This document shows, in pieces, positions 1 to 24,448 of a DNA stretch of 24,448 nt. The stretch is from a virus (taxonomy: Duplodnaviria > Caudoviricetes): IMG/VR virus record IMGVR_UViG_3300033514_000533, positions 1-24,448 of that record; one strand, 5' to 3'. A program made the position numbers and the translations under genes. A model generated the notes under the pieces. The model ran no database searches. It saw only the letters and a list, made by a program, of their open reading frames with translations, and was not told where the DNA came from. The stretch's first letter is position 1. Each line of letters starts with the position of its first letter.

Positions 1-483
1 ATCATCATATAAATGCAATAAAGAGATTTGATAATATTTATTATATCCGTTATTTAGCGTCCTAATTCCGTTATTTTGATTAAAATCTTCAGCGATTGGC
101 AAAACGATAATATACACGTTTTCATTTAAAATGTCAATACTCTTAGTTATAAGTAATTTAATTAGATTTTCACAATTACGATTAAAATAAACATGTTGCA
201 AAAGGTAATACTGAATCGAGTCCAGCGGGCTTCTATCTGTAATAAAATTATCATTATATTCTATTAATGAACATCTTTCAGTAATCATTTCATGATAAAA
301 TTCAGCAACAATTTCTGGGTTTTCTATTCCCTTTTTAACCAAATCGTCTTGTGATTTTATCTGATATTTTGATAAATATTTGGTAGTTGGTATATTTAAT
401 ATATCAACATTTAAACGCGACGACAATGATTGCATTAATGTCGTTTTTCCTGTACCAGACGCACCACTCAAAATAATTTTCAT
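1..483 (-). CDS. P-loop nucleotide kinase/ATPase (dNMP/thymidylate kinase-like, AAA_28-type); runs off window start
   Basis: Not in the ORF track. ATG at 483-481 overlaps the TGA of the upstream ORF (ATGA). Translates MKIILSGASGTGKTTLMQ... with Walker A and a FITDRSPLD motif typical of nucleoside monophosphate kinases; open to position 1. Confidence 0.75.
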   Translation of the reverse strand, partial: MKIILSGASGTGKTTLMQSLSSRLNVDILNIPTTKYLSKYQIKSQDDLVKKGIENPEIVAEFYHEMITERCSLIEYNDNFITDRSPLDSIQYYLLQHVYFNRNCENLIKLLITKSIDILNENVYIIVLPIAEDFNQNNGIRTLNNGYNKYYQISLLHLYDD

Positions 484-2210
484 AACAACTTAATCTCCAA
501 TTCAAATGTTTTGAAAAGTGATTCTTTTTTCGCAGACGAAATCACTTCAGATGGTATTTGACCTAGTGTGATCAAACCATCGTGCATATTAACCAACACT
601 GTACAGTGCGGTGAATTCTCAATACCATTGCAAATATGCTGTATCGCGCTTGATTCATAGCTTGTAATGAAATGATAGCGAATTTTCAGAAAATTATAGT
701 AGATTTTTTTATCTAACACATGATAGTGCTTACCATTTGGTAATTTTATATAGATTTCATTATTGATTTCTATTTTGTTATCATTTAAATATCCGCGCAC
801 AACCTCATTAAATGAAGATAAATCATTTATTAAATCAGCCATTACAAGTGATATTTTCTTGCGATAAAAATCGGCTTCTCTCGCGTTAATACCTGCTTCC
901 ATAAGAAGCATATATAATGCACCTTCTTTACGGCGCAAAGACATGCCGTAAATCAAGCCATTAATAATGGCTTTTACTAAATTAACATATTTAGCATCCT
1001 GACTACCAAAAATCTCAATCGCTAAATTTTCTCTCGAAATTTCTCCGCGTGCGTACCTTCCGATCTTTTCGGAAGATTTATTGTTTAATGACAGCACCTC
1101 AGTTATGATTGTTGGGTGACATTTTTTAATGTCATAATTGTTATATTGCAACCCACTTAACGCATATCTCTTGAATTCTGTCGGCATATTTTGAAATGGT
1201 ACTTCTATTTCAGACCAACGTCCGCCTTCTTGTTCATTATAAATAGAAATATAGAACATATAGCCATCAATCTCCAATCCAACATCATTAAGATGCTTAA
1301 GATAATTGATAGCAATTGCGCGCTTAATGGTATCCGTTTCTTTATTAATATAATCGTTAATGCCAGATATATTTTGAGGAACGATATATCCTATTTTGCG
1401 TTTATCCGATGTTAATGACTTCTTTATTAATGACTTCGATGATTTCTTGGATAACTTTACAACAACAAAATCAACAGATTCAAGATCATTAATATCCTTA
1501 ATGGTCGCCAAATCTACAACAACACTTGCTGAATTGTCGTGATTATGATTATATTTATTGTAATCGTTAATATAGCCATTATACACGCTATTGGGTATTG
1601 TGTATCTGCGGCATTTGCGAATATTTGTTGATGAATACCCGGTGCGAAACAATAAATTAAATGACGCTAAAATATTTGTATCACGAATGCTATACTTGTA
1701 CATTAATAAATCGCGAGAAATCCCTGTGACCTTTTTTCTAAAGTCATGTTTATTAAATGTATCGCGAGTATTTGATGGATAGAAATTCTCAAAATACTTG
1801 GAAAAAGTATAGCAATGCACAAATCTAATGTATTGACTGATTAATTTAATTCTATGTTTAAATCCGAGTTTATCCTTCTTAAAACTAAATGTGGTTTTTT
1901 CAGACAACGTGGTTTTCAAATCATCATCTGAATATGAATTCAATAATGAAAAAAGAGATTTTACATATCCAGATGATAAATATACATAATTATACTGTTC
2001 CAATTGGTTGACGGGAATTTTGGTCGACGCGAGACTACCTAGTAATTTTTTAATTACTATAGGGTTATCTAATGATAATATCGAGGATAATTCCGTATCT
2101 TTATCGCTATTTCTAAACAATCTAGCGATTTGATTCACAATTAATCCTTTTGTGCTGCTATTTATCATTGGATTTTCTGCAAAAAACTCGTCCAAAACTC
2201 TCGTGTTCAT
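480..2210 (-). CDS. Stand-alone family A polymerase-superfamily protein (PolA/T7-RNAP palm; TV-Pol-like) with no recognisable exonuclease domain
   Basis: C-terminal ~250 aa carry ordered motifs: GGRWS (cf. TGRLSS), motif A YDIKKCHPTI, motif B VKAIINGLIYG, ESSAI helix, motif C VNMHDGLI. RBS AAGGAAAAC precedes the ATG. The N-terminal ~320 aa are unrecognised. Confidence 0.65.
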   Translation of the reverse strand: MNTRVLDEFFAENPMINSSTKGLIVNQIARLFRNSDKDTELSSILSLDNPIVIKKLLGSLASTKIPVNQLEQYNYVYLSSGYVKSLFSLLNSYSDDDLKTTLSEKTTFSFKKDKLGFKHRIKLISQYIRFVHCYTFSKYFENFYPSNTRDTFNKHDFRKKVTGISRDLLMYKYSIRDTNILASFNLLFRTGYSSTNIRKCRRYTIPNSVYNGYINDYNKYNHNHDNSASVVVDLATIKDINDLESVDFVVVKLSKKSSKSLIKKSLTSDKRKIGYIVPQNISGINDYINKETDTIKRAIAINYLKHLNDVGLEIDGYMFYISIYNEQEGGRWSEIEVPFQNMPTEFKRYALSGLQYNNYDIKKCHPTIITEVLSLNNKSSEKIGRYARGEISRENLAIEIFGSQDAKYVNLVKAIINGLIYGMSLRRKEGALYMLLMEAGINAREADFYRKKISLVMADLINDLSSFNEVVRGYLNDNKIEINNEIYIKLPNGKHYHVLDKKIYYNFLKIRYHFITSYESSAIQHICNGIENSPHCTVLVNMHDGLITLGQIPSEVISSAKKESLFKTFELEIKLL

Positions 2211-2230
2211 GTTTTCCTTTTGAAATTATG

Positions 2231-3172
2231 TTATTTATTTAGATGTAATAAAAAACCGATGGCATTCATGTATTCGCAATATTCCTGTGGACATTTGTAA
2301 AAATCATCTGCTATCTTATTAAAGAGATAAGCACCACCCCCAACAAAAGCTATAAAATCTAATTTATCAAGAATATCATTGAAATTATCTTTAAGTATTT
2401 TTTCAATATCTATTTTATATTGGTCTAACAATTCTTTTACAATTTGAGAAACATCATAGGTCGTGCCGCGTCTCTTAAATGAACGAGAATATAGCACATC
2501 TTGACATTCTTTTAACTGCAAATCAATTTTGTAATTCTCTTTGATTGTCTCTTGCAATTTCCTAGCAACCGAAATTAACCCTGATTCTTTAATTCCTTTA
2601 ACATTTCCAGTTGAAACCACACCATTAATAACATGACATACATCAATAGTATTGAAACCAATATCAACAACAAAATAACTTTTATCTTCTAAAAATTCAG
2701 ATGTTGGTGTTGGAAATGTTGTGTAATATTTTTGAAATGCTAATTTCGCACCCACACCTTGAGGAAGCAGCGATAATTTAGTGTTTCCCATTCCGTTTGT
2801 ATTCAAATAATTTCTGATTACTTGTTGATATATTTGTCTAATAGGCAAAATTTGATAATGAAAAATAGACAAACCACAGCAAATTCCATTAGGGATTATT
2901 CCTAACATATTAATTGCGTGCTGCAATAATAATGGCGTGTACTTTTCTAACTCATCGTATGTTACAATATTAATTATATCATTTCTTTTTAGTGCTAAAT
3001 CACCAACGTAATAATATTTTCCGTTATAAGGAATAAGATTTTTATCTGTTACTAATCCTGTTGGCGGTAATTCTGCAACAGTAGAACTGAACTTAAATAT
3101 CTTTGATATATTCTGACCATCTCCAAATACCACTTTTGATGCTCCGAATCCTAAATCAATACCTGCAATCAT
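2231..3172 (-). CDS. ParM/StbA-like actin-fold ATPase
   Basis: Phosphate-1 IAGIDLGFGASK, PQG, phosphate-2 VVDIGFNTID and adenosine FVGGGA motifs. Start is best placed at ATG 3172 (GAGGAG RBS; TAATG overlap with the upstream gene). Confidence 0.85.
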   Translation of the reverse strand: MIAGIDLGFGASKVVFGDGQNISKIFKFSSTVAELPPTGLVTDKNLIPYNGKYYYVGDLALKRNDIINIVTYDELEKYTPLLLQHAINMLGIIPNGICCGLSIFHYQILPIRQIYQQVIRNYLNTNGMGNTKLSLLPQGVGAKLAFQKYYTTFPTPTSEFLEDKSYFVVDIGFNTIDVCHVINGVVSTGNVKGIKESGLISVARKLQETIKENYKIDLQLKECQDVLYSRSFKRRGTTYDVSQIVKELLDQYKIDIEKILKDNFNDILDKLDFIAFVGGGAYLFNKIADDFYKCPQEYCEYMNAIGFLLHLNK

Positions 3173-3471
3173 TAAAAACACTCCTCTTCAGCGGGAAGAA
3201 AATCAATATCTTGTTGTGTGGAATTTACAGCGTCAACAGCAGCACGCTCCATTTTTTTGTAAAGAATTTCACTGTGATCTATTTCATTTTGCTCTAATTC
3301 TTCTTGAATTGTTGTATTGTTGTTAATACTGGGTAATATTACCGTTTCTGGTTTATCCACATCAACTTCTTTTTTTGTTTCTGTAGCAGAGTAAACTATT
3401 GGTGTTTTGTTATCAAAAACTATTGTTAGTGAATTAATTGGTTGATCTGTTTCTAATGATAATTTAAACAT
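3172..3471 (-). CDS. Small acidic protein translationally coupled to the ParM-like gene (possible adaptor)
   Basis: The ORF track start (3531) lies inside a promoter. ATG at 3471 has an AGGA RBS and gives 99 aa, MFKLSLETDQPINSLTIVFD...; its stop overlaps the ParM start. Confidence 0.65.
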   Translation of the reverse strand: MFKLSLETDQPINSLTIVFDNKTPIVYSATETKKEVDVDKPETVILPSINNNTTIQEELEQNEIDHSEILYKKMERAAVDAVNSTQQDIDFLPAEEECF

Positions 3472-3502
3472 TTTTTCCTGATCTTTATATATAAGGAAAG
3501 GC

Positions 3503-3531
3503 AGTATAGCATGAAAAAAATTAGATGTCAA
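3503..3531 (-). promoter_or_regulatory. sigma70 promoter PL1
   Basis: Minus strand TTGACA-N17-TATACT with TG extended -10. Confidence 0.8.
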
Positions 3532-3575
3532 TATAAAAATAAAAAAAACACGTTTACAATAATCTCTTTAAAAGC

Positions 3576-3604
3576 ATTATAACATCATCATAAATCATTG
3601 TCAA
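3576..3604 (-). promoter_or_regulatory. sigma70 promoter PL2
   Basis: Minus strand perfect TTGACA-N17-TATAAT with TG extended -10. Confidence 0.8.
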
Positions 3605-3671
3605 TAACTATATTTATATCCGTATATTAAATAAAATATTCAATATTATAGTTAAATTTCTTTAATAACAT

Positions 3672-3753
3672 TTTCTCTTATGCGTTAAACCCTAACCGTC
3701 TGCGTGCTTGTGCGGTCGCCGCACGCTGCGGAAGGGTAAACGCTCGTGAGAAA
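3672..3753 (+). repeat. GC-rich hairpin element, copy 1 (inverted relative to 4175-4256)
   Basis: Nested arms tttctc/gagaaa, gcgtt/aacgc, accct/agggt, ccgt/gcgg, gcgtgc/gcacgc around a 13-nt loop. Confidence 0.9.
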
Positions 3754-3788
3754 GTTCTCTAGTAATATAAAAAATATTAAAAGCATTG

Positions 3789-3936
3789 TATAATATAATA
3801 TATATAAACGAAAATTTGAGAAAGAATTATGTTGTGAGAAAAATTAAGTTCAGTCCTCATATTACAAACACATTGATATATATTCCTAACGCGTGCAACT
3901 TTTATAATTATTTGATTGTAAAGTAAATTCCTAGAA
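3789..3936 (+). repeat. ~150-bp direct repeat, copy A
   Basis: Matches 3996-4157. Contains an identical 27-bp core ttcctaacgcgtgcaacttttataatt (3883-3909 = 4103-4129) and begins with an AT-only tract. Confidence 0.9.
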
Positions 3937-3995
3937 GATGACGTGTTAAACATAATAAATATAGCATTTTTTAAAATAATTAATAAAAAGAATTA

Positions 3996-4157
3996 TATAA
4001 TATAATATATATAAATTAAATTTGAGAAAAAAATTAATTGAGAAAATGAGGTTGTGAGAAATATTAAGTTCATCCCCACACATAACACACACATTGATAT
4101 ATTTCCTAACGCGTGCAACTTTTATAATTGTTTGATTATGAAAGTAAATTCATAGAA
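3996..4157 (+). repeat. ~160-bp direct repeat, copy B
   Basis: Second copy, core offset 220 bp from copy A, with an extra TGAGAAA-containing insertion. Confidence 0.9.
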
Positions 4158-4174
4158 TCGTAGAAACTTATTTT

Positions 4175-4256
4175 TTTCTCACGAGCGTTTACCCTTCCGT
4201 AGCGGGCGGCACAGACGCAAGCCCGCAGACGGTTAGGGTTTAACGCATTAGAGAAA
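4175..4256 (-). repeat. GC-rich hairpin element, copy 2
   Basis: Reverse complement matches 3672-3753 closely. Inner stem is gcgggc/gcccgc (compensatory change versus gcgtgc/gcacgc); the loop is diverged but the same length. Confidence 0.9.
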
Positions 4257-4290
4257 TAATCAATTATAATTTTGGTGATTTTAATTTAGA

Positions 4291-4319
4291 TTGACAATGA
4301 GAAAATAAAATGATAATAT
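4291..4319 (+). promoter_or_regulatory. sigma70 promoter PR for the helicase operon
   Basis: TTGACA-N17-TAATAT with TG extended -10. Shares TTGACAATGA with PL2 and has a TGAGAAA box in the spacer. Confidence 0.7.
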
Positions 4320-4357
4320 GACAGTACGTGAAAAAAAGAAAAACAGGCAACAATTAA

Positions 4358-5752
4358 ATGATTAATGATCTTGCAGTATCATGTAGTTTGGGAAATACTA
4401 AAATAAGGGAAATTATATTTCCATTCTTACAAAGGATAAAATTTGATACACCTGCGGCTAGAATGATTAAAAAATATTTTTTAAATAGGAAAGATGGTAA
4501 TATTGAAATAGCAGAATTCACATCTTTTCTAGCAGGTACACCTTATGTAGATAAGGTGGATGGCGAGAAGAAAAATTTAAATTTTAATGAAATTAAGAAA
4601 ATTGTTGATATAGTAAAACACTATATAGATTTACCAGAGGATAAAATTGATGAATCTATAAAAACATTTGAAATTTATTATAAACAAAAATTAGCTAACA
4701 ATATTTTAAGTGACAATGATTCGCCGGAAAAGATTTTTGATGAATTTAAAAATGCAGAATTGTTTGATGCAAACAATATTAAAACCATTGATTCAGATGT
4801 AATTATTGAGAGAATTACGGATATTGAAATTGATGATGAAATAAGAAAAATTGGCACACCAATTCCTAGCTTTCTTAATAGCATTAATGAATCATGTAGT
4901 TATGGTGGATATATTAAAGGAACGATTAATTTAGTGTGCGCTCCACCGGGAGTAGGTAAAACTCTATTTATGTTAAATGAAGCAATAAATTTTTTAAGAC
5001 AAGGAAAAAAAGTATATTGGTTAAGTGTTGCAGATATGATGAAAATTGATATTATGACAAGAATGGCTTCAATATCTTGTAATATTCCAATGAAAGATGT
5101 GACCAGTAGATTACCTTTAAATGAACTTGATCAGCATTATTATAACATCTCTGTAGAAGAAATGTTATCAAAAAGAATAAAAAAATATTTTTATTGGGAA
5201 AACCATGATTTACAATATTACGACAATTTTTATTGTTCTATTGTTGATTCTGGGAGACTATCCGCTGATGATCTAGAGAGTGTTGTTAATAAAAAACTAA
5301 AACATCTTTTAGATAAGGATGTTGTTGATATTATTTTTTTAGATTATGATGGTGGAATTAAAAAAACTAAAAGTGATAATTCTTACGAAGAAGGTGAAAT
5401 ATTATACAATAAAGCTGTAGAAATAGCTAGAGATGATGAATCTAAATTATTATTTGTTGCTTCACAACCCGCCAAATGGTCATATTTGCACGAAGTTCTA
5501 TACATGGATAGTATCGGGGAATCTGCTAGAAAAGTTCAAATTGCAGATATGGGTATTTTTATTAGTAGGGTTACAACCAGTACAGGAGTTGTTAATATTG
5601 ATAGACAAAGACGTGGTGAGAAATTAAAATTTTTTTATGAAAGAAGTTCATCAGGAAGGATTTATGAAATTGACTATCATGAGTATCAGGAAATAAAACA
5701 AGAATATGATGAACAACAAAAGCGATTTGATAGTAGTTCAAAAAGAAGGTGA
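4358..5752 (+). CDS. Replicative SF4 helicase (DnaB/T4 gp41-like)
   Basis: Walker A APPGVGKT, H1a YWLSVADM, Walker B IIFLDYDG, H3 FVASQ, SIGESARKVQIAD and arginine-finger RQRRG. Confidence 0.85.
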   Translation: MINDLAVSCSLGNTKIREIIFPFLQRIKFDTPAARMIKKYFLNRKDGNIEIAEFTSFLAGTPYVDKVDGEKKNLNFNEIKKIVDIVKHYIDLPEDKIDESIKTFEIYYKQKLANNILSDNDSPEKIFDEFKNAELFDANNIKTIDSDVIIERITDIEIDDEIRKIGTPIPSFLNSINESCSYGGYIKGTINLVCAPPGVGKTLFMLNEAINFLRQGKKVYWLSVADMMKIDIMTRMASISCNIPMKDVTSRLPLNELDQHYYNISVEEMLSKRIKKYFYWENHDLQYYDNFYCSIVDSGRLSADDLESVVNKKLKHLLDKDVVDIIFLDYDGGIKKTKSDNSYEEGEILYNKAVEIARDDESKLLFVASQPAKWSYLHEVLYMDSIGESARKVQIADMGIFISRVTTSTGVVNIDRQRRGEKLKFFYERSSSGRIYEIDYHEYQEIKQEYDEQQKRFDSSSKRR

Positions 5753-7498: not shown

Positions 7499-8794
7499 AT
7501 GAGCATAACATTAAATAGAACAGTAAAAACACCACAAGAAGCTGTGAATGATTTTTCAAATCATTCTAATACACAAAAAGTAGCAGTTGGCTATATGCCG
7601 TACACAATTCCCGCAATGGAAAGTAGAGAATGGTTGGTTCGATTTTTTCCTATTGATTTGTTAGAGCAATACTTAAAAAGTGGCAGCAAGGAATCAATTA
7701 TTGATTTCAATTATAATATTGATGAAAATCCATTTCATAGACATATTGTATATCATGAAACAGATAAAGGTAGCGTTCCTTGTATGAACTTTTTAAGGCT
7801 CATTCCAGAAAGAAGAAATGGTCATGAAGAATATTGTGATATTTGTGGAACGCGTTTTAAGATATTAGACCTTCCCCCATCAGACGATAAGAAACTTGAA
7901 TATTTAAAATCTAAAGGCAAAACATTTAACAGTAATGGTCTGGAAGATAAGTTTTTTGAGTCTAATGTAGAAAAGAAATTGCAAAAAGGAATTCAACCAA
8001 CTAAAACATATCTGTATTTAATGTATGTTCATCAGTTTCCTTCTGATTACATAGAAAATAATAACAGTGTAGATTATTTACCAAAATTAAATAATCGTAT
8101 GCTTTTTGTAGCCAAAGTTAATAAAAAAACGCACGAATCTATTAACGCTTCGCTCGAATTTTATCTGAATAAAAAGAATAATGAGCAATTTATCAAGTCA
8201 ATCGATCCTAGAATTGATGTTGCACCTTATTTTACATTAAATTTTAAAGCGTCTTTAGAAAAGCCTAAAGACCCAAAATCAAAAAAATTGATCAGTTTGG
8301 TTTTGTCGTTATCAGATGATAATTGTGAATACAGCGATGATTTAAAGAAAGAACTTTCTGACGTGAAGGAAGGGAAAATCAAACCAGAAGATACAATGTT
8401 ATTTGGGAAGTCGAATGTAAAACAAGTTATTGTTGAAGATAAATATGATGCAGATAAACAGAAGGCAGCATTTAATTTCGCCAAATCTCAAATGAATGCT
8501 ATTTTTAGACAGAAAAATCGTGAAGATTTACTGCTTCCAATTGATAATACTAACGCAGTAGTTGTAAATATGTCATCGCAAGCAAATCAAAAGCATACAT
8601 GTTTTGGTAGCTTCTCGGAAGGAGATACAGACTGCATTAAATGTAGTTATTTAACACAATGTGAAAGTGCGACAGGTCGTCCTACCGTACCTACCGTACC
8701 TGTTCCTAGCTCTAAAGCTGCATTGGATAATAATATTAAAGCATTAACACATTCTGTCTCAGAATCAAATTTTGATGATGATGTTCCTTTTTAA
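7499..8794 (+). CDS. Single-stranded DNA-binding protein (T4 gp32-like)
   Basis: WLVRFFP (cf. gp32 VIRFLP), H...C...CDIC zinc ligands, acidic SSB tail NFDDDVPF, and location in a replication operon. Confidence 0.7.
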   Translation: MSITLNRTVKTPQEAVNDFSNHSNTQKVAVGYMPYTIPAMESREWLVRFFPIDLLEQYLKSGSKESIIDFNYNIDENPFHRHIVYHETDKGSVPCMNFLRLIPERRNGHEEYCDICGTRFKILDLPPSDDKKLEYLKSKGKTFNSNGLEDKFFESNVEKKLQKGIQPTKTYLYLMYVHQFPSDYIENNNSVDYLPKLNNRMLFVAKVNKKTHESINASLEFYLNKKNNEQFIKSIDPRIDVAPYFTLNFKASLEKPKDPKSKKLISLVLSLSDDNCEYSDDLKKELSDVKEGKIKPEDTMLFGKSNVKQVIVEDKYDADKQKAAFNFAKSQMNAIFRQKNREDLLLPIDNTNAVVVNMSSQANQKHTCFGSFSEGDTDCIKCSYLTQCESATGRPTVPTVPVPSSKAALDNNIKALTHSVSESNFDDDVPF

Positions 8795-9750: not shown

Positions 9751-11880
9751 GTGCGATTTGTTGGTAGCCTAATACATAAGCTACCCAATTGATTTAGAAG
9801 ATAAAATCAATTGAACTGATGTGTAAAGTGGTGAAAACCCACCCGTCCCGGCATGGACGTGAAGCAGACCTACCCACAGGGAGATAGCTCAATTCTATCA
9901 AGCTGAAGCTGGGAATAGGACGGAATCAGAGGACTCACCTGAAGCCCACACTGCCGTTAGCTTAGTTCTCATGATGAAATGGTGTACAAACAATTGCCTG
10001 AAAAAGTCTCCAACTATACTATAGAAATAAAGGTGAAGCAAAAGAAACTATAGAATATCCAATACTCGCTAGATTATTGTTTAGATACTAGCAATGCTGA
10101 GTAGGATGTGGGGAAAATGGCAGCATCTAAAAGAACAGTATGGTTGCACATCGGAACAAATAAAAACGTCTGAAAGGTCTGGTAACTTGGTCGTTATCAG
10201 TAGGATAGATGAGAATCGGAATCCCTCAAGACGGGTAAGATGTCTCGTAATTGAGACAAGGATTTGAGAATGAATTTGCAAACTAACAACAATGGAATTA
10301 GACACATGATTACTAATCATAGTGAGTTCAAGACTGCTCAAATAACAGTCTTTAAGTTGCAAAAGCGAATTTATAAAGCTACCGCTAGAGGTGATTTACG
10401 GTCAGCACGTAAACTCCAAAAGTTGTTGCTCAACTCTCAATCAGCAAAGATAATAGCAGTACGTCAAGTAACACAATTGAATCAAGGTAAAAAGACAGCA
10501 GGTATTGATGGAATAATAGCATTAACACCAAAAGAAAGAATGGAATTGATAGTAAGATTGAGAATGTGGAAAACATGGAAACATCAAGCACTCAGAGAAA
10601 TCCCAATCAAGAAAAAGAATGGTAAAACTCGAATGCTAAAAATTCCCACAATCTCAGATAGAGCTTATCAATGCCTTCTGAAATTGGCACTAGAACCAGC
10701 ACATGAAGTCACTTTACATGAAAGAAGTTACGGGTTTAGAACAGGTCGAAGTGCACACGATGCACAGAAAAACGTGTTTGTCAACCTGAGAAGCAACTCC
10801 AATGGAAAAGACAAACGTGTATTGGAATTAGATATATCTCAATGCTTCGATAAAATCGAACATAAATCAATACTGGAAAAACTGATAGCTCCAAAATGGG
10901 CGATAAAAGGAATAAAACTAGCACTAAAAGCTGGAATAAACCCTGAATTCCCATCACAAGGCACACCACAAGGTGGAATAATTAGTCCGCTGTTAGCAAA
11001 CATTGCATTAAACGGTATAGAAAACATACACCCATCAATAAGATACGCAGATGATGTGGTAATATTTCTAAAACCAACCGATGATGAAAAAGCGATACTA
11101 AACAAGCTGCAAATATTCTTAACTGAAAGAGGATTGACAATAAATGAAGAGAAAACACGGGTAACACCAACAACCAAAGGTTTTAACTTTCTTGGGTGGA
11201 CGTTTATTAACAAACCCAATGGCAAATTAACCTGCTATCCTACAAATGAAAGCAGAGAAGAATTGACAAAGAAAGTGAAAAATCTAATCACTAAAAGCGG
11301 ATTACCAACAAGTGAAAAGGTAGTAAAACTAGCACCAATTATACGTGGCTGGAGAAACTACCATAAATACTGTGATATGACAGGAAATAACGGACTATGG
11401 AATCTAAATAAATGGACGTGGAAACAACTGCATAAAAACAAGAATGCAACAGTGTATCAGACGAACAGTCTAATACAAAAAGCATTCCCAACAGTAGATT
11501 ATAGCTTGTTTAGCTTTGTAAGTGTAAAGGGAAATAAATCCCCTTATGACGGCGATATGATGTATTGGTCAGCAAGAAATTCCAAACTGTACGATAATCA
11601 AACAGCCAAAGCACTAAAGAAGCAGGGTAATAAATGTGGAAAATGTGGTATGTACTTAACGGGAGAACAACCAGTTGAATTACACCATATAAATGGAAAT
11701 CACAGTGACAACAAGCCTAAAAACTTAATAGCAATACATCGCTCATGTCACATAGAAATCCACTCCACGTATAGCAAAGGTCTGATAAACCTAACAAATT
11801 CGGGAGCCGTGTGAGGTGAAAGTCTCATGCACGGATTTAATCGAGAAGCGTCCTATATAATAGTAGGCGTTGACTCAACT
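9751..11880 (+). mobile_element. Group IIB intron (chloroplast-like/cyanobacterial CL-type), complete with IEP
   Basis: 5' GTGCG; DI closing stem atttgtt/aacaaat; EBS1 TGTTTA (10078-10083, in a gctag/ctagc loop) complementary to the exon end TAAACA; J2/3 AGA at 10212; DV gagccgtgtgaggtgaaagtctcatgcacggattt (~11803-11838); DVI with bulged A11873. Confidence 0.92.
10264..11814 (+). CDS. ltrA: Group II intron reverse transcriptase/maturase with HNH endonuclease
   Basis: RT0 LQKRIYKA/NQGKKTAGIDG, RMLKIPTISDR, SYGFRTGRSAHDA, GTPQGGIISPLLANI, RYADD, X domain IRGWRNY, CGKC...HHINGNHSDNKPKNL...CH. The real start may be ATG 10270 or 10306. Confidence 0.95.
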   Translation: MRMNLQTNNNGIRHMITNHSEFKTAQITVFKLQKRIYKATARGDLRSARKLQKLLLNSQSAKIIAVRQVTQLNQGKKTAGIDGIIALTPKERMELIVRLRMWKTWKHQALREIPIKKKNGKTRMLKIPTISDRAYQCLLKLALEPAHEVTLHERSYGFRTGRSAHDAQKNVFVNLRSNSNGKDKRVLELDISQCFDKIEHKSILEKLIAPKWAIKGIKLALKAGINPEFPSQGTPQGGIISPLLANIALNGIENIHPSIRYADDVVIFLKPTDDEKAILNKLQIFLTERGLTINEEKTRVTPTTKGFNFLGWTFINKPNGKLTCYPTNESREELTKKVKNLITKSGLPTSEKVVKLAPIIRGWRNYHKYCDMTGNNGLWNLNKWTWKQLHKNKNATVYQTNSLIQKAFPTVDYSLFSFVSVKGNKSPYDGDMMYWSARNSKLYDNQTAKALKKQGNKCGKCGMYLTGEQPVELHHINGNHSDNKPKNLIAIHRSCHIEIHSTYSKGLINLTNSGAV

Positions 11881-13870
11881 TAATATGTCAGCAATTCATT
11901 CATATTATTTTAATAAAATAAAAGATGGGATTGAGTCTTTTATTGATTGCGATTTTACAATCAATTCTGTTGAATTGAAGAATTTTCGATCTGTTGAATA
12001 TTTAAAGTTCTTACCAAAAGAAGGTATTACACTGATACAGGGAGATGTTGGCAGTGGAAAATCAACATTAATTAATGCTATTAGGTATGTCTTCTTAGAT
12101 GCAAAAGACTCTATCAATCTGAAGGACTTGGTTAAGCTGAATTCAAAATCAATGAGCGTGTCTATTGAGATAGCGTATCAAGGGCATACACATTATATTG
12201 AGCGAGGTTATGCCAAAAATAGCGGTTACTTGATATATAAAATTAACAACAAACTAATTGAGTCTGAAAATCAATCCAGCATAAAAAGTCACATTTCAAA
12301 TAATTTAAGATTTTTAAAGCTATTTAATGTTTTTTTCTTTAATCAGCGTAGAGAAGGTTTTTTAAGCAGTTATTCTTATTCTGAACGCGTTTCTTTAATA
12401 TCTGACATTCTAAACTTAGATATATTAGATAAGATATATAGATTAGTTGTTGATGATGTCGCTAAATTAAAAAATGAGATTAGTTTAATTTCAAATGAAA
12501 TAAACAGTAAAACAGCGACAATAAATGCAAGAAAAGAGCAGATAGCGCATTGGAATAGTGATATTGATTATCAATCATTAATTGCAGATAATTTGAGATT
12601 AATATCTATTTATTCTTTGATAATAGAGTTAAACGAAAAAACAGAATCGCATTCTAAACAGCAACAGATTAATCGTAAAATTGTTGAATCATTGTCTGAT
12701 TTGCCGCAGTTATTGTCAAAATCAACGGATAAAACACCGTTACTATTAGAAAAAAATAACTTATTGTCTTTGCTAGAAGAATCGACATCGGAATTAATAC
12801 GCAGACAAAAATTATTAGAAAAATATAAAAATGAAATCAATAAAATTCAGTTAAATGTTGATATTTTAAAAAAACAAAGAGATGTCTTAAAAGAATCAAA
12901 ATGTCATGCTTGCGGACATTCGTTAAATGCAGAAGAAATAGAATCTCTAAAACAAAAAACAGATTTGAGTATTTCAGAAAACGAAAACAGATTGGAAAAA
13001 GGTAAAAAAGCTGTAGAAAGTATTGATATAGACAGTGTTGAATTAAAAAATTACAAAATTAAATCACTTATATCTGAAATTGACAATAAGATTTCGTTGA
13101 TTCTTGCAGAAGAAGATAATTTCATAAAACAACAAAACAATCAAAGAAAGTTAGCTGTTGCAAAAGATATTATAACTACTTCTGAAAACCAAATAGAGGC
13201 TTTACAACACAAAATTCTTGCTGTTTGTGAAGAGCATAATGTACAGCCGATAAATGCCTACCAAGAAGTGATGAAGTTGAAGGAGGAAAATGCTGGCTTT
13301 AATCAGTTGCTTATATTAAAAAACAAATATCAGATTTCACTTGAAAAAATAGAAAAAGATGAGGCAACTCTAAAGGATACTCAGCACTCTCTTGCAATAA
13401 AAGAGGCTAATCTAGTGGATTTGTCGAAATATTTAGAATTGTTTTCTCCAAAAGGTGAGATTCTACTGTCGATTTTAAATGAGTTATCCCAAATATTCTC
13501 AAACAATCATATTAATGTTCGTTCTATTAAAAAATTAACAAACGGTGATGTAAGACCAGATTTCGATATTGATTTTAAAGTAGATAATGAGTGGATAAAG
13601 TATGATATGTGTAGCGGCGGTCAGCAAACCATAATAGATATTTCAATACTAGAAAAGCTATATGGGATATTAGGAAAGGTTGGTGTGTTGGCATTTGATG
13701 AGACATTTAAGTTTTTAGGGGATTCTGATACAGAGCAGGTGTTGCAATCAATAAAATTAATTGATGCTAATCACGTATTTATCATATCTCATGCTCAAAA
13801 TTTTCCTTATTCGGATTCTTTAATCAAAGTTGACTTTGATAAAAAAAGCATATATAATGTTGTGTTTTAA
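11881..13870 (+). CDS. sbcC: Rad50/SbcC (gp46-like) SMC ATPase; exon 2 of a probable SbcD-SbcC fusion
   Basis: ELKNFRS, Walker A GDVGSGKS, Q-loop FFNQ, coiled coils with a CHAC zinc hook, signature CSGGQ, Walker B AFDE, ISH switch. Confidence 0.9.
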
Positions 13871-14603: not shown

Positions 14604-16037
14604 ATGAAAATATTAATTGTTGATCCCCAGAATTACAATTTATTGGATTTTGCATTGTCTTGCATGGCAATTGGTCATGACATAACATATTATATCGAAA
14701 GTACAGATAGAAATAATTTAACAGGTAGCGGTTTATTGGAAATATCTTCTTCATGGGAAGATAAGTTAGAAGGTAAGGATTTGATTTTATTTGCTACAAA
14801 TAATTACAAAAATGAACTTGTAGATAAGTTGATATCGGGCAATTATCCAGTTGTTGGTGCGGGTTCTTTGGGTAGTAAATTAGAGTCCGATAGAGAATTT
14901 GGGATTGATATTCTTAAACAATATAATATTTTCAATACTATTCCATGTAAAAAATTCAATACTAAGTATGAATGCGAACAATATATTGTCAATAATTCAG
15001 ATCAAAGATTTGTTTTTAAACCGCCCGGCGAAACTATTGATAAATCCATGACGTATGTCAGTAGAAATAATAAAGATTTGTTGTTTATGTTGAGTTATTG
15101 GGAAAAACTAGGCAAACTACCATCGCAATTTTATTTGCAGAAATTTATTAAAGGAGTGGAAATGGCTGTTGGTAGTTGGTTTAGTTATAAATCAGGTTTT
15201 TCAAGATATGTGTTTGAAAATTTTGAATTTAAAAAGCTCATGAATGATGATTTGGGTGTTGCTACATACGAGCAGGGTACAGTGGGCAGATATGTTTTAG
15301 GTGCTAAATCAAAACTAGCTCAATCCGTTCTATTTAAAATAGAGAGCTATTTAAAGCAAATAAAATATATTGGATATATAGATGTAAATTGCATTGTAAG
15401 CAATGAGGGGATAGCATATCCACTAGAATTTACTACTAGATTCGGATATCCAACATTTGCATTACAAAGCACATTACACAAAGGCGATCCTGCTCAGTTT
15501 TTATTGGATTTAACTCAAGGTAAAGATACACTGAGAGTAGATGAAAGTGTAGCTACATGTGTTGTTTTATCGCAACCAGATTATCCTTATGATAAAATAC
15601 CAGTTGAACAACAGGTTGGGATACCAATTTTTGGAATAACAAAAGAAAATAGAAAATTCATTAAATTGTTTTTGGCTATGCAAACTAAAGTGCCTGAAAT
15701 TATCGACGGCAAAATACAACAAGTAAATGAATTTGCAACAACAGGCGGTTTTATTATGTGTTGTGTTGGAGTAGGAGGTTCTGTTCAAGAATCCCAAGAT
15801 AGAGCATATAAATTAGTGAAAACCATAGAAATTCCAAACTCATTGATGTATAGAACTGATATTGGCGACAGATTAGAACATCAAATCCCGATACTGCATT
15901 CTTTAGGCTATTGTAACGATATGGAATATGGTGCAAATTTCAAATATAAACAAGAAGATATAAATCAAAAACCATCAGATAATCAAAGCAGTATAGCAAG
16001 AAGCACTTTAGATTATCTATCTACATTAGTTGTATAA
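14604..16037 (+). CDS. PurD (GAR synthetase)-like ATP-grasp ligase
   Basis: LESDREFG (cf. LEGSKAF), FVFKP, QKFIKGVE, EFTTRFGYP (cf. EFNxRFGDP), TGG and YRTDIG; GGAG RBS. Lacks the N-terminal GxGGREH. Confidence 0.75.
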   Translation: MKILIVDPQNYNLLDFALSCMAIGHDITYYIESTDRNNLTGSGLLEISSSWEDKLEGKDLILFATNNYKNELVDKLISGNYPVVGAGSLGSKLESDREFGIDILKQYNIFNTIPCKKFNTKYECEQYIVNNSDQRFVFKPPGETIDKSMTYVSRNNKDLLFMLSYWEKLGKLPSQFYLQKFIKGVEMAVGSWFSYKSGFSRYVFENFEFKKLMNDDLGVATYEQGTVGRYVLGAKSKLAQSVLFKIESYLKQIKYIGYIDVNCIVSNEGIAYPLEFTTRFGYPTFALQSTLHKGDPAQFLLDLTQGKDTLRVDESVATCVVLSQPDYPYDKIPVEQQVGIPIFGITKENRKFIKLFLAMQTKVPEIIDGKIQQVNEFATTGGFIMCCVGVGGSVQESQDRAYKLVKTIEIPNSLMYRTDIGDRLEHQIPILHSLGYCNDMEYGANFKYKQEDINQKPSDNQSSIARSTLDYLSTLVV

Positions 16038-16780: not shown

Positions 16781-17210
16781 CGGTATGAATTTATATAGAA
16801 AAAGTTACGAGGAATTAAGGTGTTATAGAAGCAATATAGAATACACTGATTTTTTATATATTGTTAGCTCAGTTATATCATACATAAAAAATCAGCAAAT
16901 CCACAACGCAGATTTTACGGAAAAATGCAAAATTGTTAATCACAATTTATTGGAATTGTATAACGTACAATTAAAGAGAGAATATAGTGAATCTCTTTTT
17001 AATAATTTTGAGAACTTAATTATTGATGCAAATATCATTAATGTTGAATTGGTAGCGGGATATATTTTTAAATACATTGATTATATTGACTCAAATTATG
17101 AATTTCTAATATCTGATTTGGAGGATTTGTATGGTAAAATGAAATTATTTCTAGCAAGCAAGAACGCTAAGTTTTCTTTAACGGAAAATATATCAATAAT
17201 CTACAGATAA
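16770..17210 (+). CDS. Hypothetical protein
   Basis: 146-aa ORF (ATG 16785 is an alternative start) in an operon-like arrangement. Confidence 0.6.
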   Translation: MTNNGMNLYRKSYEELRCYRSNIEYTDFLYIVSSVISYIKNQQIHNADFTEKCKIVNHNLLELYNVQLKREYSESLFNNFENLIIDANIINVELVAGYIFKYIDYIDSNYEFLISDLEDLYGKMKLFLASKNAKFSLTENISIIYR

Positions 17211-17216
17211 AACGAC

Positions 17217-17579
17217 ATGAAAGACAACGAAAATTTAAAAAAAATCCTGAGAAGAATAAACAACTATTTCTTTAATTACAAAAATGAATATGATCAAGGC
17301 AAACCATTGGTTATGTTTGCAGATATAGATTTACTAGAAAATTATTTTGTTATTTTTACAAAAGAAAATGAAGATATATTGAATTTTCATAATGGTATTT
17401 TATTGAATACCGTGACTAATGAAATATATGAATTGAAAGCAAAAATATATAGCTTTCTAAAACAAGAAGCGGTTGATATTGATAGAATTATCAACCTATC
17501 AGAGAGAATACTGTTTAAGATAGATAGTATAGAAAGTTTTCTGAAAAACTATGAATTAATGAAGAAAATATTACTTTAA
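17217..17579 (+). CDS. Hypothetical protein
   Basis: 120-aa ORF ending at the terminator. Confidence 0.65.
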   Translation: MKDNENLKKILRRINNYFFNYKNEYDQGKPLVMFADIDLLENYFVIFTKENEDILNFHNGILLNTVTNEIYELKAKIYSFLKQEAVDIDRIINLSERILFKIDSIESFLKNYELMKKILL

Positions 17580-17580
17580 A

Positions 17581-17619
17581 AAAAAGGTCGCTATATCATG
17601 CCAATATAGCGACCTTTTT
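17581..17619. terminator. Bidirectional intrinsic terminator
   Basis: aaaaaggtcgctatat-catgcca-atatagcgaccttttt between convergent genes; U-tract on both strands. Confidence 0.88.
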
Positions 17620-18531
17620 CTAGTTAATTTGTGTGTATAGTTTTCTTATGTCATCAGAAACCGATGATGCAATAGCAAAATCTTTACCACAAAAATCAGG
17701 TAATTTCGGTTTATTCAAAACCCTCGATTCTAAAAAACTATAAACATCTGGATTCTCCCTGCATGTTTCCTCAACATTTCTAATGCAATTAATGCGTAAT
17801 TGATTGTCATACTCAGTATTTAACCCATCCAAAAAGAATTCTAATGCCGTATGTTTCTCATATAAATCAAATAGCATTTTTGATAATTTTTTTGGTGGTA
17901 TTAAATGATCATAAATAACTGGGGAATCATAACAAACATCATACAATATATTCATATCTCTTGGGTTGCATTGCAATGGTGTTTCATCCCTCACTGAAAT
18001 CTTAAACCATTGGTTATTATCGCAATAAAACGCCTGACCTACTTCCCCAAATAACAAAGTTTTACTTTCTGTGTTATTCATAATCCGCATATACAATTCC
18101 CTAGTTTTACTGGTATTAGAGTATATAATTGCATTTTCTAAATCAGCTTCTTTTGTCGTTTTGTGGTATAATACCCTATGACACACGAATTGATATACAT
18201 CATCGTTGGCAAATAATTTATCAACATGACCAATACATTCACGTTGTAATTTTTCACCTAATGTTTTATCCATACCATTAAGAAAAAACACAAGTGAGGT
18301 ATATTTTGCATATAACTGACGCAGTTGTTCTAATAATACAGGTAATGGTGGAATGTATGTTAAACAAATGGGTTCTCTACATATATCTAATTGCAAATCT
18401 ATTTCTCTTCCGCTACAAATCTCAGGTGTGTGTTTGCGACGTGATACCTTAGAATATACATTATTTTGTAGGAAAATAGCCGTACCTGTTTCACCAAAAA
18501 TCCAAGTTTTTACATGATCGGTTTTGTTCAT
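17620..18531 (-). CDS. Hypothetical protein built from two tandem ~150-aa homologous domains
   Basis: ATG 18531 with AAGGA RBS. Halves align: KTWIFGETG/KTLLFGEVG, LYAKYTSLVFFLNG/LYEKHTALEFFLDG, DVYQFVCHRVL/DVYSFLESRVL, TRELY/IRKLY. Confidence 0.75.
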   Translation of the reverse strand: MNKTDHVKTWIFGETGTAIFLQNNVYSKVSRRKHTPEICSGREIDLQLDICREPICLTYIPPLPVLLEQLRQLYAKYTSLVFFLNGMDKTLGEKLQRECIGHVDKLFANDDVYQFVCHRVLYHKTTKEADLENAIIYSNTSKTRELYMRIMNNTESKTLLFGEVGQAFYCDNNQWFKISVRDETPLQCNPRDMNILYDVCYDSPVIYDHLIPPKKLSKMLFDLYEKHTALEFFLDGLNTEYDNQLRINCIRNVEETCRENPDVYSFLESRVLNKPKLPDFCGKDFAIASSVSDDIRKLYTQIN

Positions 18532-20202: not shown

Positions 20203-21222
20203 ATGAAAGAGATTAAAAAGACAGCAAAACATATAGATTTAAATTCACTAAAAATATCTAAATCAAGTGGCAATGTTACCAGATATTACTGTCCTAATTG
20301 CATCATAAAAATAAACAAATCGGATGACGAGGGAACTCTATCGTTTAATCACGCTTTGAAGAAGGGATGGTGTTATCGTTGTCATACTGCCTTTTTTGTA
20401 CAAGGAAAGAGTGTATTAGAAGAATTAGATGATGCAAGTGATTACTTGTCAGGGAATCAATCTGTCAAGATTGCAGACAATACATTAATAACAACAACAA
20501 TAACAACAAAAATAATACAAAAAAAGACACACCAATCATTCGCAAAAGCAGAGCTATCAAACAAAGAGATAATTATTACACCATTAATTGATAGACACAA
20601 AATCTATTTGGAAAATAGAAATCCGTTTATATTAGAAATTTCTGATTTTTTAGGGCTAAAGAGTGCGAAGTATTATCGAGATGCAATCTTTATTCCTTTT
20701 TTGTTTAATGGTGAGGTGTTTCAATTTCAATTGCGTTTTACGGATTTATTAAAACCAAAGCATTATACAAGCGTTGGGGATAAAATACCGTATTCGCCCG
20801 ATCATTTACTTTTCGATGTGAATAGTGTACAATCATTAAATGCGATCACATTGTGCGAAGGCGTGTTTGATGCTATTGCATTAAGGATAATGGGTTATCC
20901 AAATCCATTCGCTGTTTTGGGTTCGGTAATCACAGATTATCAAATGGATATATTAAGGAATTTTGAATTTGAGGAAATATATTGTGCCTTTGATAACGAA
21001 TATTTGAATAAGGAAAATATAAAAAACATTATAAATCTGTTTCCTTTTGTTTCTCAGCATAACAGTATCGTTTTTCCAAAGATAGACGATATTCAACCAG
21101 ACCCAGAAGAGTTTTTAAGATATAAAAGCAAATTAAATCAAGATTTGTATGACAAATACAAAGAAAACACTCATAAATGGCTACTAAATGTTAGTAATAA
21201 ATCGCGATCCTCAAATTATTGA
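20203..21222 (+). CDS. DnaG-type Toprim DNA primase (phage gp61-like)
   Basis: Zinc finger CPNC...CYRC, Toprim LCEGVFDAI, AVLG, AFDNE, DPEE. Confidence 0.85.
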   Translation: MKEIKKTAKHIDLNSLKISKSSGNVTRYYCPNCIIKINKSDDEGTLSFNHALKKGWCYRCHTAFFVQGKSVLEELDDASDYLSGNQSVKIADNTLITTTITTKIIQKKTHQSFAKAELSNKEIIITPLIDRHKIYLENRNPFILEISDFLGLKSAKYYRDAIFIPFLFNGEVFQFQLRFTDLLKPKHYTSVGDKIPYSPDHLLFDVNSVQSLNAITLCEGVFDAIALRIMGYPNPFAVLGSVITDYQMDILRNFEFEEIYCAFDNEYLNKENIKNIINLFPFVSQHNSIVFPKIDDIQPDPEEFLRYKSKLNQDLYDKYKENTHKWLLNVSNKSRSSNY

Positions 21223-21930: not shown

Positions 21931-23601
21931 ATGAGCGACTTCGCCCAATCTATCACTTTAGAAGAAATTGAAGAACAGGTGAAATTGAAATTTCCATCAC
22001 ACAAGAAATTTAATGATGGTCAATTTCAAATTATTATGAAGATTCTATCTTCTTTCTTAATAGACGGCAATAAATTCTATATACTAGAAGCCCCAACAGG
22101 TATTGGAAAATCAGTTATTGCTAAAACTGTTGCAAATGTTATTAATTATTTCACTGTACCAAACAGTAAAATTATTACATGCAACCGATTATTGCAACGA
22201 CAATATTCTTCTGATTTCGACGATATGAAAAATATCGAAAGTTCAAAGCATTATGATTGTGCAATATCCTTGTTTAAGGGTGCTGCATCTACTCATTATA
22301 ACGATATTGATTGTGGCGGAAGGTCATGTCCCTCAATAGGACGTTGTGATTATTTTAATGCTTTTAACGCATTTATTAACGCACCGACAGGGATTACTAA
22401 TTATGCTTACTATTTAATGAATGCAGAAATAAATAGTAATTTACTGATAGCTGATGAAGCTCATAACATGGAGAGTTTAATTTGCACACATTATTCAATT
22501 GAATTGGAGTCAGAGCAAGTCAATGGTTTATTTAAATACATGAAAAAAATTCAAGTTGACAATGAATCTGCATCTAAAATTCGTAGGGGATTTTTAGAGA
22601 TGAGAAGTTATATTTCAGGTCAGACTGAGAATTTGTTTTTTCTTGATGATTTTATTTATAACATCGGATTAATGTATAAGCGTTTAACATCTGAAATTTT
22701 AAAACATAAACGTGGTAGCAAAACAACACTAATCTTTTCTGGTAAAGAAGACCACCTGTCTAAGTGTAAATCGCATATTGAATATCTGAAAAGATTAGAG
22801 GTTTTGTTGCAGATTTTTAGATCAAATCCATCATCTTATATTAAGATGTATAGCATTGAAAATAATGGCAGTGAAGACCTTGTAAAAGCGATATTGAAGC
22901 CATTAGAGCCTCGACACATTGCGAGAATATTGTTTGATCGCAGCAAATATGTATTGTTAATGAGCGCAACGATTTGTGGTGTTGAAGAATTTGCAGCAAA
23001 CTTGGGGATTACCAATTTTGGTTTTGATTGTTTGAGCAGTCCATTTCCTGTTGAAAATCGACTCATTATGTTACATAATTTGGAAGGGTTAAATAATGGT
23101 AATTTCTCTCAATTAGTTGACTTATACATACAAAAAATGGATGAAATTCTTGATTTTCATATTGAGGATCGTGGGCTTATCCACACTGTTTCATATTCAA
23201 ATCAAAAATTAATTGAATCAAAATCGCGGCACGCTAAACGTTTTATCTTACCAAAAAGAGGAGAACTATTTAATATTAACAAGTTAAAGTCAACAAAAAA
23301 CGGAATTTTATTATCCCCTTCAATGACGGAAGGTGTTGATCTAGCAGATGATCTATCGAGATTTCAAATAATATTTAAGATGCCATTTGCAAATCTTGGT
23401 GATAAATGGATTAAAAAGAAAATGGAATTATCTTATGTGTGGTATTTGATTCAAGTTGCGAGAACATTCTCGCAGTCATGTGGTCGGAGTGTGCGTCATA
23501 AAGAAGACTCAGCGATAACACACGTTATTGACGGCAATATTAATAAAATTCAGCATCTTTTGCCAAAATATATTCAAGAAGCACTGAAGGAAGATAATTA
23601 G
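21931..23601 (+). CDS. DinG/XPD-family SF2 helicase
   Basis: Q motif, APTGIGKS, LQRQY, four-Cys Fe-S segment, DEAH, MSAT, SPF, EGVD, QSCGRSVRH. Confidence 0.88.
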   Translation: MSDFAQSITLEEIEEQVKLKFPSHKKFNDGQFQIIMKILSSFLIDGNKFYILEAPTGIGKSVIAKTVANVINYFTVPNSKIITCNRLLQRQYSSDFDDMKNIESSKHYDCAISLFKGAASTHYNDIDCGGRSCPSIGRCDYFNAFNAFINAPTGITNYAYYLMNAEINSNLLIADEAHNMESLICTHYSIELESEQVNGLFKYMKKIQVDNESASKIRRGFLEMRSYISGQTENLFFLDDFIYNIGLMYKRLTSEILKHKRGSKTTLIFSGKEDHLSKCKSHIEYLKRLEVLLQIFRSNPSSYIKMYSIENNGSEDLVKAILKPLEPRHIARILFDRSKYVLLMSATICGVEEFAANLGITNFGFDCLSSPFPVENRLIMLHNLEGLNNGNFSQLVDLYIQKMDEILDFHIEDRGLIHTVSYSNQKLIESKSRHAKRFILPKRGELFNINKLKSTKNGILLSPSMTEGVDLADDLSRFQIIFKMPFANLGDKWIKKKMELSYVWYLIQVARTFSQSCGRSVRHKEDSAITHVIDGNINKIQHLLPKYIQEALKEDN

Positions 23602-24448
23602 TGTTAATACAACACGGTGTAAATTCTGAGATATGTTTTTTATGTGAAGATGTCTCAGAATTTCAGTTTTCAGAAGAATTTAAAGATATTAGAATTTCTG
23701 CCAATAAAAAGATTGTTAATTATTGTGTTACAGATGATTTTAGCGAAACAAGACCTTTTAAAAAGGTTTTTGTTTTGGATAAGCAGATATATAATACACT
23801 ATCAAACGATAGTCAATATATTCTATGCGATAATATATCTGTTATTAATGGAGATAATGACTCGATAGAGGGTTGTATTGAGCTAAAATTAGATGGTTTA
23901 TTAAATATTGTTTCACAATTAATGAGAGAGACAGATGTTGCATTGGTGACAATCACTAATGAATTTTATTCATGGGATGATAAATTCAAAATAGAATGTT
24001 TGTGGTTTGCTACTCATAAACAAGAATTCAAGATAATTGTTGATAGGGATTTTTATGACAATGAGCTTACTGCAATTGAAAACCTGTTAAGTACAGGTAA
24101 AGTATGGATACATGACATAAAAAAAGAAATGTCTATTTATTGGAGATTAACAAAGAAGAAATTACCACTACAAGATATTTCAGTGTTATTATCAATAGAT
24201 AACCCATCAAATACAAAAGAAAAAATATCTACATTACTAATGCTTTATCTAAGCATTGGTAATTGTCAACAAATAACACCCATTTCTATTTTGAAATTAA
24301 AAAAACTGTTATATGAAAAACACAGTGAACCATATCAGTATTTTATCAAACAATCATATTTGTCATGTATTTTAGAATCAAATGCAATTGGATGGGATGA
24401 GGGTATTGCATCAAAAATAGAAAAAGTATATTGCAAAAAAAGAAATGA
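23601..24448 (+). CDS. Large ORF running off the window end; probable N-terminus of a family A DNA polymerase with a degenerate 3'-5' exonuclease fold
   Basis: Not in the ORF track. GTG 23601 overlaps the TAG of the helicase gene (GAAGGA RBS); 282 codons with no stop. KVWIHDIKKE, QDISVLLSIDNP and LESNAIGWD resemble PolA HNxKFD, DTMxxxYLLDP and MExNGIxxD. The ORF is secure; the function is tentative. Confidence 0.55.
   Translation, partial: MLIQHGVNSEICFLCEDVSEFQFSEEFKDIRISANKKIVNYCVTDDFSETRPFKKVFVLDKQIYNTLSNDSQYILCDNISVINGDNDSIEGCIELKLDGLLNIVSQLMRETDVALVTITNEFYSWDDKFKIECLWFATHKQEFKIIVDRDFYDNELTAIENLLSTGKVWIHDIKKEMSIYWRLTKKKLPLQDISVLLSIDNPSNTKEKISTLLMLYLSIGNCQQITPISILKLKKLLYEKHSEPYQYFIKQSYLSCILESNAIGWDEGIASKIEKVYCKKRN

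Follow-up and report, generated by a model that had tools for sequence, protein, structure and literature searches.

The question raised by this locus is whether a small family-A DNA polymerase (PolA) of a phage primes DNA replication at a pair of inverted hairpins encoded near it. The window analyzed here comprises 24,448 nucleotides (nt) and represents in full the virus record IMGVR_UViG_3300033514_000533. A first-pass annotation had proposed that its 576-amino-acid (aa) minimal PolA, coupled to an actin, forms a dedicated local module with the hairpins and starts bidirectional synthesis from them. We found that this phage carries the hairpin pair in more than one copy. The two-armed units (dyads) are tentatively interpreted, with confidence a little short of an even call, as a dispersed repeat whose copies are sites where bidirectional replication starts or restarts, and on the best reading of the sequences the actin pair and the minimal PolA are modules separate from the dyads. 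The elements of dyad 1 in the window are as follows:

3672..3753, plus strand: hairpin A, 82 nt, with a bulged stem of about 26 bp
4175..4256, minus strand: hairpin B, 82 nt, an inverted copy of A
3776..3936, plus strand: inner arm X1, with an AT-rich tract, TGAGAAA motifs and a conserved inner box at 3883-3922
3983..4157, plus strand: inner arm X2, a direct copy of X1 in place of the inverted inner arm of relatives

The two inverted, structurally conserved hairpins that had been described proved to be real. Hairpins A and B are inverted and 88-90% alike (107 bits, compared to a maximum of 42.8 in 200 mononucleotide shuffles), fold as DNA on either strand with z-scores of -5.1 to -7.2, and have a GC content of 55% in surroundings of 16-22%. 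Over nine hairpin copies, both partners had changed in 4 of 20 named pairs, and pairing was kept in 97.8% of 180 cells, a level reached by none of 500 shuffles and compared to 31-45% in slid controls; the basal stem was excluded from the covariation count because it was misaligned. Selection on the hairpin structure is supported by this pattern, which template switching and kinship can also mimic. Neither the geometry nor the G-T pairs favored the hairpin of one strand over that of the other, and no Rfam family matched the hairpins. At its base the hairpin is similar to the RSB motif known from single-strand origins of rolling-circle replicons (PMC4598088), split over the stem ends and too short to weigh. 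An integron attC identity was rejected by eye, the order of the core sites being reversed.

The description of the locus as mirror-symmetric was correct for the hairpins and for the relatives, and did not extend to the interior of the window locus. In contigs L002 and L003 (88% identical to the window), the whole locus is a dyad of about 920 nt with full symmetry, each arm running from an outer box through the hairpin and an AT-rich stretch to an inner box. This is the layout of a typical arm throughout the dyads, whose two arms face each other. In the window, the inner repeats of about 165 nt run direct and not inverted, so that the symmetry is only partial. Comparison of the window with L002 showed hairpins 87-90% identical, with most of the spacer aligning weakly.

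The hairpin locus is not particular to its operon, as a second dyad was found in the same phage. Contig G006 continues the window at 99.7% identity over 14,575 nt and contains dyad 2 (hairpins at 17181-17827) between PolA and the terminase operon, at a distance of 23.4 kb from dyad 1. Contig G001 (80-91% identical to the window) has dyads at 36183-36830 and 12439-13041; its dyad 2 is at the same place as in G006, and dyad 3 lies 23.8 kb further, inside the tail operon. There are therefore at least two dyads in one phage and three dyad loci in the phage group. A 17-nt pattern and a degenerate 23-nt pattern recovered further hairpin copies in viral contigs, two longer patterns gave no match there, and a match in L033 was dismissed as chance, belonging to another kind of virus. 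Just inside the hairpin the AT fraction was 0.76-0.91 in all 13 arms, and 10 of the 13 arms examined had an inner box, located inward of the hairpin by 184-234 nt. Contig depth on the hairpins was about 25-90 times the flanking-gene depth in 4/4 runs, a ratio that sums overlapping contigs and other strains and is not a copy number, and 11-23 variant contigs, many with differing flanks, were seen at a single hairpin site. As a separate observation, window positions 18566-18618 match sequence just outside dyad 2 in L047 and L052.

Dispersed elements of this type might be selfish or neutral non-coding repeats, resembling either miniature inverted-repeat transposable elements (MITEs) or the repeats of Campylobacter phages, that act mainly as recombination joints between modules. 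Recombination between arms is evident, with arms exchanged, turned around, doubled, and lost from strain to strain: L047 and L048 have one arm in common and differ in the other, two loop types are on opposite sides in the window and L002, stretches of 100% identity occur between arms, and joints in other samples record that the inner repeat was gained (3970/3972 to 3779) and lost (3808 to 4038) in tandem. Dyad 3 encloses an open reading frame (ORF), and the repeat regions of phages CP21 and CP220 likewise have two parts in direct or inverted orientation, contain ORFs, and lie at module boundaries (PMC4546147, PMC2853527). However, target-site duplications were found at none of five dyads, the longest flank word in common (4-6 nt, with ends set by eye from alignments) being at the level of chance, and no sharp common terminus was seen; the combination of target duplication and sharp conserved termini expected of MITEs or terminal inverted repeats is therefore lacking. 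Dyad 2 moreover keeps its position in strains 83-90% alike, and neither the covariation nor the conserved bulges suit a neutral repeat, which makes this explanation rather unlikely in our view.

A role of the dyads in replication would draw on the core enzymes of the phage, three of which are encoded in the rightward block of the window:

4358..5752, plus strand: DnaB-like replicative helicase, opening the right operon (phrog_19, E 7e-34)
20203..21222, plus strand: Toprim (DnaG-type) primase
23601..24446, plus strand: N-terminal third of a full family-A DNA polymerase (816-aa orthologue in G001; phrog_17, E 5e-33)

The separate primase and full PolA noted in the first-pass annotation are thus both present, the PolA cut in the window being completed in G006. 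In the replication reading, a phage protein would bind the inner boxes of the dyad, the AT-rich tracts would melt, and a helicase would load at the melted dyad; each exposed strand would then fold its hairpin as a priming signal, and forks would leave in both directions. The DnaG-type primase with DnaB would be the default primer maker. The geometry of the hairpins, as had been argued before, is suited to bidirectional priming.

Several observations weigh against a replication function. Near-palindromes can gain compensatory changes by template switching without selection, and the shuffle tests are inflated because the arms are related to each other. The depth ratios, as summed values, limit the support that they give, and the regular spacing consists of two intervals, taken from two strains. 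Dyad 3 is without inner boxes and encloses an 85-aa ORF in the tail operon. None of four cultured kin matched the hairpin model, and three of them, scanned whole, contained no dyads, so that the lineage can replicate without these elements. The skew switch, named as a check in the first-pass annotation, follows the gene strand: at 3.5-4 kb it coincides with the change of gene strand, a lone minus-strand gene at 17620 in the right arm also reverses the skew, and the cumulative skew of G001 keeps its sign across both dyads, with no lasting switch at dyads 2 and 3. GC skew was dropped as origin evidence because it tracks the coding strand.

The flanks of dyad 1 contain promoter-like sequences:

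3503..3604, minus strand: two sigma70-like promoter matches into the left operon, outside the hairpin (12/12 and 11/12, by consensus match only)
4291..4319, plus strand: sigma70-like promoter match into the DnaB operon (10/12, with extended TG)

Because dyads 1 and 2 each separate a divergent gene pair and are closely flanked by near-perfect sigma70 matches, the arms might be transcription-control cassettes (operators or structured leaders) for divergent operons. Yet these matches are outside the repeated unit and point away from it, dyad 3 belongs to an operon read in one direction and has no strong promoter pointing outward, a terminator-like site was absent in 3/3 scans, and the hairpins, as stated above, are without an Rfam match. 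We regard control of transcription as quite unlikely.

To the left of the dyad, the operon of polymerase, actin, and kinase reported earlier was confirmed as a leftward run of four genes from 3471 to 1:

3172..3471, minus strand: acidic protein of 99 aa, a conserved actin partner, aligning with the ORF that precedes actin in phages Y65, RP13 and pv27
2231..3181, minus strand: ParM/Alp-like actin of large phages (PF21522, E 3e-12; PF17989; phrog_691, E 2e-33)
480..2210, minus strand: 576-aa minimal family-A polymerase, TV-Pol/divPolA2-like, with the polymerase domain at about residues 260-576 and a probable winged helix at about 115-225
1..483, minus strand: P-loop protein similar to nucleotide monophosphate kinases, truncated at the window end (199 aa in L002; match to phrog_2107, thymidylate kinase, E 1e-12)

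The window actin is predicted to be an actin-fold NTPase as in ParMRC/Alp systems and is 33-38% identical to proteins of Rhizobium, Ralstonia, Vibrio, Campylobacter, and Acinetobacter phages. A profile of the 99-aa protein, which may be an actin adaptor, matched in 38 of 55 phage actin loci at E<=0.05 and in 35 at E<=0.001; large phages commonly encode this actin pair. Among the 55 loci, many of which are near-duplicates, none contained the polymerase (53 have room for it downstream) and none the hairpin. The actin thus travels with its 99-aa partner and not with polymerase or hairpins, which leaves the coupling to actin unsupported and, together with a skew switch that tracks the gene strand, speaks against the dedicated local module as originally conceived. 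Could the dyads be centromere-like sites for the actin and its partner? Dyad 1 is directly upstream of the actin pair, and TGAGAAA is clustered there, with 8 of the 15 copies in the window falling within 3747-4298, but the pair also occurs in 38/55 loci and in cultured phages without a dyad, and the acidic partner has no recognized DNA-binding domain. A centromere function therefore appears very improbable. Downstream of actin in other loci, we noted inverted arm pairs of 57-80 nt, 1-2 kb apart (L083 10683-12738, L084 12383-13860, and L123 10680-11804), with no match to the window hairpin model.

The 576-aa protein matched no naming family and no nuclease in Pfam, PHROG, or NCBIfam. Its AlphaFold model was confident over residues ~280-576, matched family-A polymerases in Foldseek (E 4e-9), and gave VIA Z values of 17.2 with Pol theta, 17.0 with Klenow, and 12.7 with T7 RNA polymerase (at Z 17, root-mean-square deviation 3.6 with 284 aligned). 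The PolA fold with a palm and no exonuclease, as first annotated, is thus well matched by the model. Residues before 260 matched winged helix-turn-helix (wHTH) folds, the region at ~115-225 with Z 6-7, a range that VIA rates as possibly common, and with weak Foldseek values (E 0.014 at best). The N-terminal domain of the relatives, modeled alone (pLDDT 87), gave mostly winged-helix Foldseek rows, all weak, and aligned with that of the window protein over 42 columns at a probability of 18.6%. Taken together, the models indicate that a winged-helix N-terminal domain is probable.

Word-index protein searches gave just two near relatives, the alignment query included, whereas HMMER over 1.84 billion representatives returned 32 matches, P0003 at 35% identity and the others weak. 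The family alignment of 21 rows comprises 19 of these matches, P0002, and the window protein, low-complexity or multi-stretch matches having been excluded. Invariant in 21/21 aligned rows were G330-R331, Q340, D360, K413, E519, and D544-G545, and by sequence the catalytic aspartates are intact. Compared to TV-Pol, the RRM palm with two conserved aspartates is present (D360 and D544), the invariant G330-R331 lies in the beta-hairpin between model strands 317-326 and 332-335, and no nuclease is fused; helices 281-290 and 294-310 precede this hairpin in the model, as candidates for the two-helix thumb. In the fingers, K413 and Y421-G422 are found, but position -4 of the RxxxK motif is V409, and the Arg is also missing in the aligned relatives and in gp030 of Microcystis phage Ma-LMM01. 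The TV-Pol likeness given in the first-pass annotation consequently stands for the palm, the beta-hairpin Arg, and the missing nuclease, and not for the RxxxK Arg or a D5 helicase; the protein was graded TV-Pol-like and not a TV-Pol member because the Arg is replaced by V409.

The family profile aligned to gp030 at 99.3%. This gene adjoins transposases, and a Ma-LMM01 TV-Pol, which may be gp030, is listed by Iyer et al. (PMC2579912). A direct search with the window protein found no relative in viral contigs or phage records, and tblastn with the window protein, P0033, and P0004 against phage records matched Microcystis phages only, with no barbavirus match. Around family members (70 of 107 neighbors scanned), integrase, resolvase, transposase, or KilAC genes were found at 12 of 18 loci and actin at none; the window locus itself has no D5 helicase link and no integrase, resolvase, or transposase beside it. 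A 191-kb provirus (L012 7974-9473, L046) encodes a family member split by a single TGA and a second, weaker paralogue.

The polymerase gene differs from that of L002 by 138 synonymous and 72 nonsynonymous codon changes, evidence of purifying selection at the sequence level. Its four-fold GC is 37%, compared to 21% in 20 other window genes (p=1e-6) and 13-26% in 18 long G001 genes; this dissimilarity suggests a recent acquisition from a foreign source. Contig L004 combines a window-type dyad and 99-aa ORF with an L002-type actin and polymerase, with a crossover near 3000-3200 (against the window, 1024-3200). This recombinant is, as judged from its sequence, neutral with respect to a shared hairpin and shows no co-adaptation of dyad and polymerase.

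On these data the proposal that the minimal PolA is a dedicated initiator-primase, whose winged helix binds the arms and whose polymerase domain primes each hairpin in trans, can be weighed. The enzyme branch and the dyads were seen only in this phage group and are absent from 4/4 cultured kin, the enzyme keeps its catalytic residues under purifying selection and probably has a wHTH domain, the GC content of the polymerase gene and of the hairpins exceeds that of the genome, and the related CcPol-MP primes de novo (PMC10061031). On the other hand, homologues are not linked to hairpin loci as had been expected: the hairpin model matched 0 of 22 family loci (19 distinct places), and self-comparison of 18 family loci revealed no similar dyad. 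The gene is situated 1.5 kb from dyad 1, behind the actin pair; there is no such gene at dyads 2 and 3, and none was found in G001 or G002, fragments that both end before its locus. Its alleles recombine freely against the dyad, and the wHTH matches are weak. We consider a dedicated initiator-primase unlikely.

We favor separate modules because none of 55 actin loci contains polymerase or hairpin, none of four cultured kin encodes the family, the family neighbors are of mobile type, the codon GC is foreign, and alleles are mixed in L004. The minimal PolA would most likely be an accessory priming or gap-filling enzyme. Priming in trans at all dyads retains a minor share of probability, since neither the enzyme nor the dyads were seen outside this phage group. 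In its fullest form, which we also judge doubtful, a captured TV-Pol-like primase-polymerase would have had its hairpin signal spread as evenly spaced dyads about every 24 kb, the winged-helix PolA priming both strands at every dyad before the core PolA/DnaB replisome takes over; replication would then be distributed over many origins in the manner of baculovirus homologous regions (hrs).

Among known systems, the enzyme resembles TV-Pol (PMC2579912) in having a nuclease-free minimal PolA core, the Arg of the beta-hairpin, two aspartates in the palm, and an extra N-terminal domain, and in relatives located beside integrase, resolvase, IS605-type transposase, and KilA-C genes; primase and polymerase activity are predicted for that family. 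It differs by V409 in place of the RxxxK Arg and the lack of a D5 helicase, by an N-terminal domain that looks winged-helix and not all-helical, and by a gene placed in a phage operon without an adjacent integrase. With divPolA2 (PMC11348598) it shares an accessory divergent PolA in a phage with a regular DNA polymerase, a variable neighborhood, an active palm (here predicted from intact residues), no exonuclease, and an extra N-terminal globular domain; in contrast, the phage here uses PolA and not PolB, and no barbavirus record matched. By sequence, the 576-aa protein forms a new branch, similar to a member, within a kind of enzyme already described. The covarying 82-nt hairpins, with their natural stem variants, provide a defined candidate substrate for TV-Pol/divPolA2-type enzymes without a partner that is either D5 or an SSB (a protein binding single-stranded DNA), and they bear on why phages with a full replisome keep such enzymes.

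In layout, the dyads resemble repeat regions of the Campylobacter group II phages CP21, CP220, and CPt10, which encode the same actin family. The dispersed bipartite repeats of these phages (PMC4546147, PMC2853527) have direct or inverted arms, some enclosing ORFs, with a variable number of units and recombination between repeats; their arms consist of tandem 72-86-bp units, whereas each arm here has one long covarying hairpin and boxes. The RSF1010 oriV with ssiA, ssiB, and RepB' (PMC8567376) likewise pairs two structured signals in inverted orientation at a site, from which priming of opposite strands could occur. The present phage differs in having several dyads per genome, elements of 82 nt and not 40 nt, and hairpins that flank an AT-rich core, and no archaeo-eukaryotic primase was found in it. 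Baculovirus hrs, reported as origins and enhancers (PMC4535591), are imperfect palindromes interspersed at several loci; they are short tandem palindromes of a eukaryotic virus and serve as an analogy only. Should the dyads prove to be origins, phages would have in them a counterpart of the hrs. An RSF1010-type origin is a single oriV per replicon with its cognate primase, which the dyads, at two or more per phage, are not. No DNA similarity of the dyads to phage or plasmid records was detected (blastn for phage records), and literature searches found no evenly spaced two-armed hairpin repeats in phages.

The source of the window is best read, from protein and gene-order similarity, as a large myovirus related to Kleczkowskaviridae. 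DnaB, primase, and actin have their nearest kin in Kleczkowskaviridae (RHph_Y65), Ralstonia phage RP13, and Acinetobacter phage Ab1-TPeters at 25-38% protein identity, the best DnaB relatives being Kleczkowskaviridae and RP13; the gene orders DnaB-small ORFs-SbcD/C and primase-Cas4-helicase-PolA are common to window and cultured kin. These kin differ in having no minimal PolA and no dyads. The assignment to large myoviruses follows from related contigs that also encode terminase, head protease, tail sheath, and tail tube. G001 (52.8 kb) was rated 29% by CheckV, the runs best covering this DNA are microbial-mat metagenomes, and no RNA datasets carrying it were listed. RP13 (L062-L070) has dispersed intergenic repeats of about 100 nt, in two families ending in a ribosome-binding site, which are promoter-cassette-like and unrelated to the window hairpin.

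From 4358 the rightward block encodes DnaB, a protein weakly matching RusA, SbcD and SbcC along with a group II intron, and a protein similar to PurD; it continues with the Toprim primase, a nuclease of Cas4 type, a helicase of DinG type, and a truncated ORF. The intron is located at 9937-11879 in the SbcD-SbcC region, with a reverse transcriptase/maturase/HNH ORF at 10264-11814 and Rfam RF00029 at 11802-11879; contigs L002 and G001 both stop near it. The PurD-like ATP-grasp protein (GARS_A, GARS_C; 14604-16037) is within the replication block and is present in G001 too. A 431-aa protein at 7499-8794 has an acidic C-terminus; by position and tail it is likely the SSB, and it diverges more between strains than neighboring genes. 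The lone minus-strand ORF at 17620-18657 (345 aa) has an internal two-fold repeat, belongs to no family, and corresponds to two ORFs in G001. Between capsid and tail genes, L042 2471-8701 (G001 19.4-25.7 kb) encodes small paralogous ORFs with N-termini alike.

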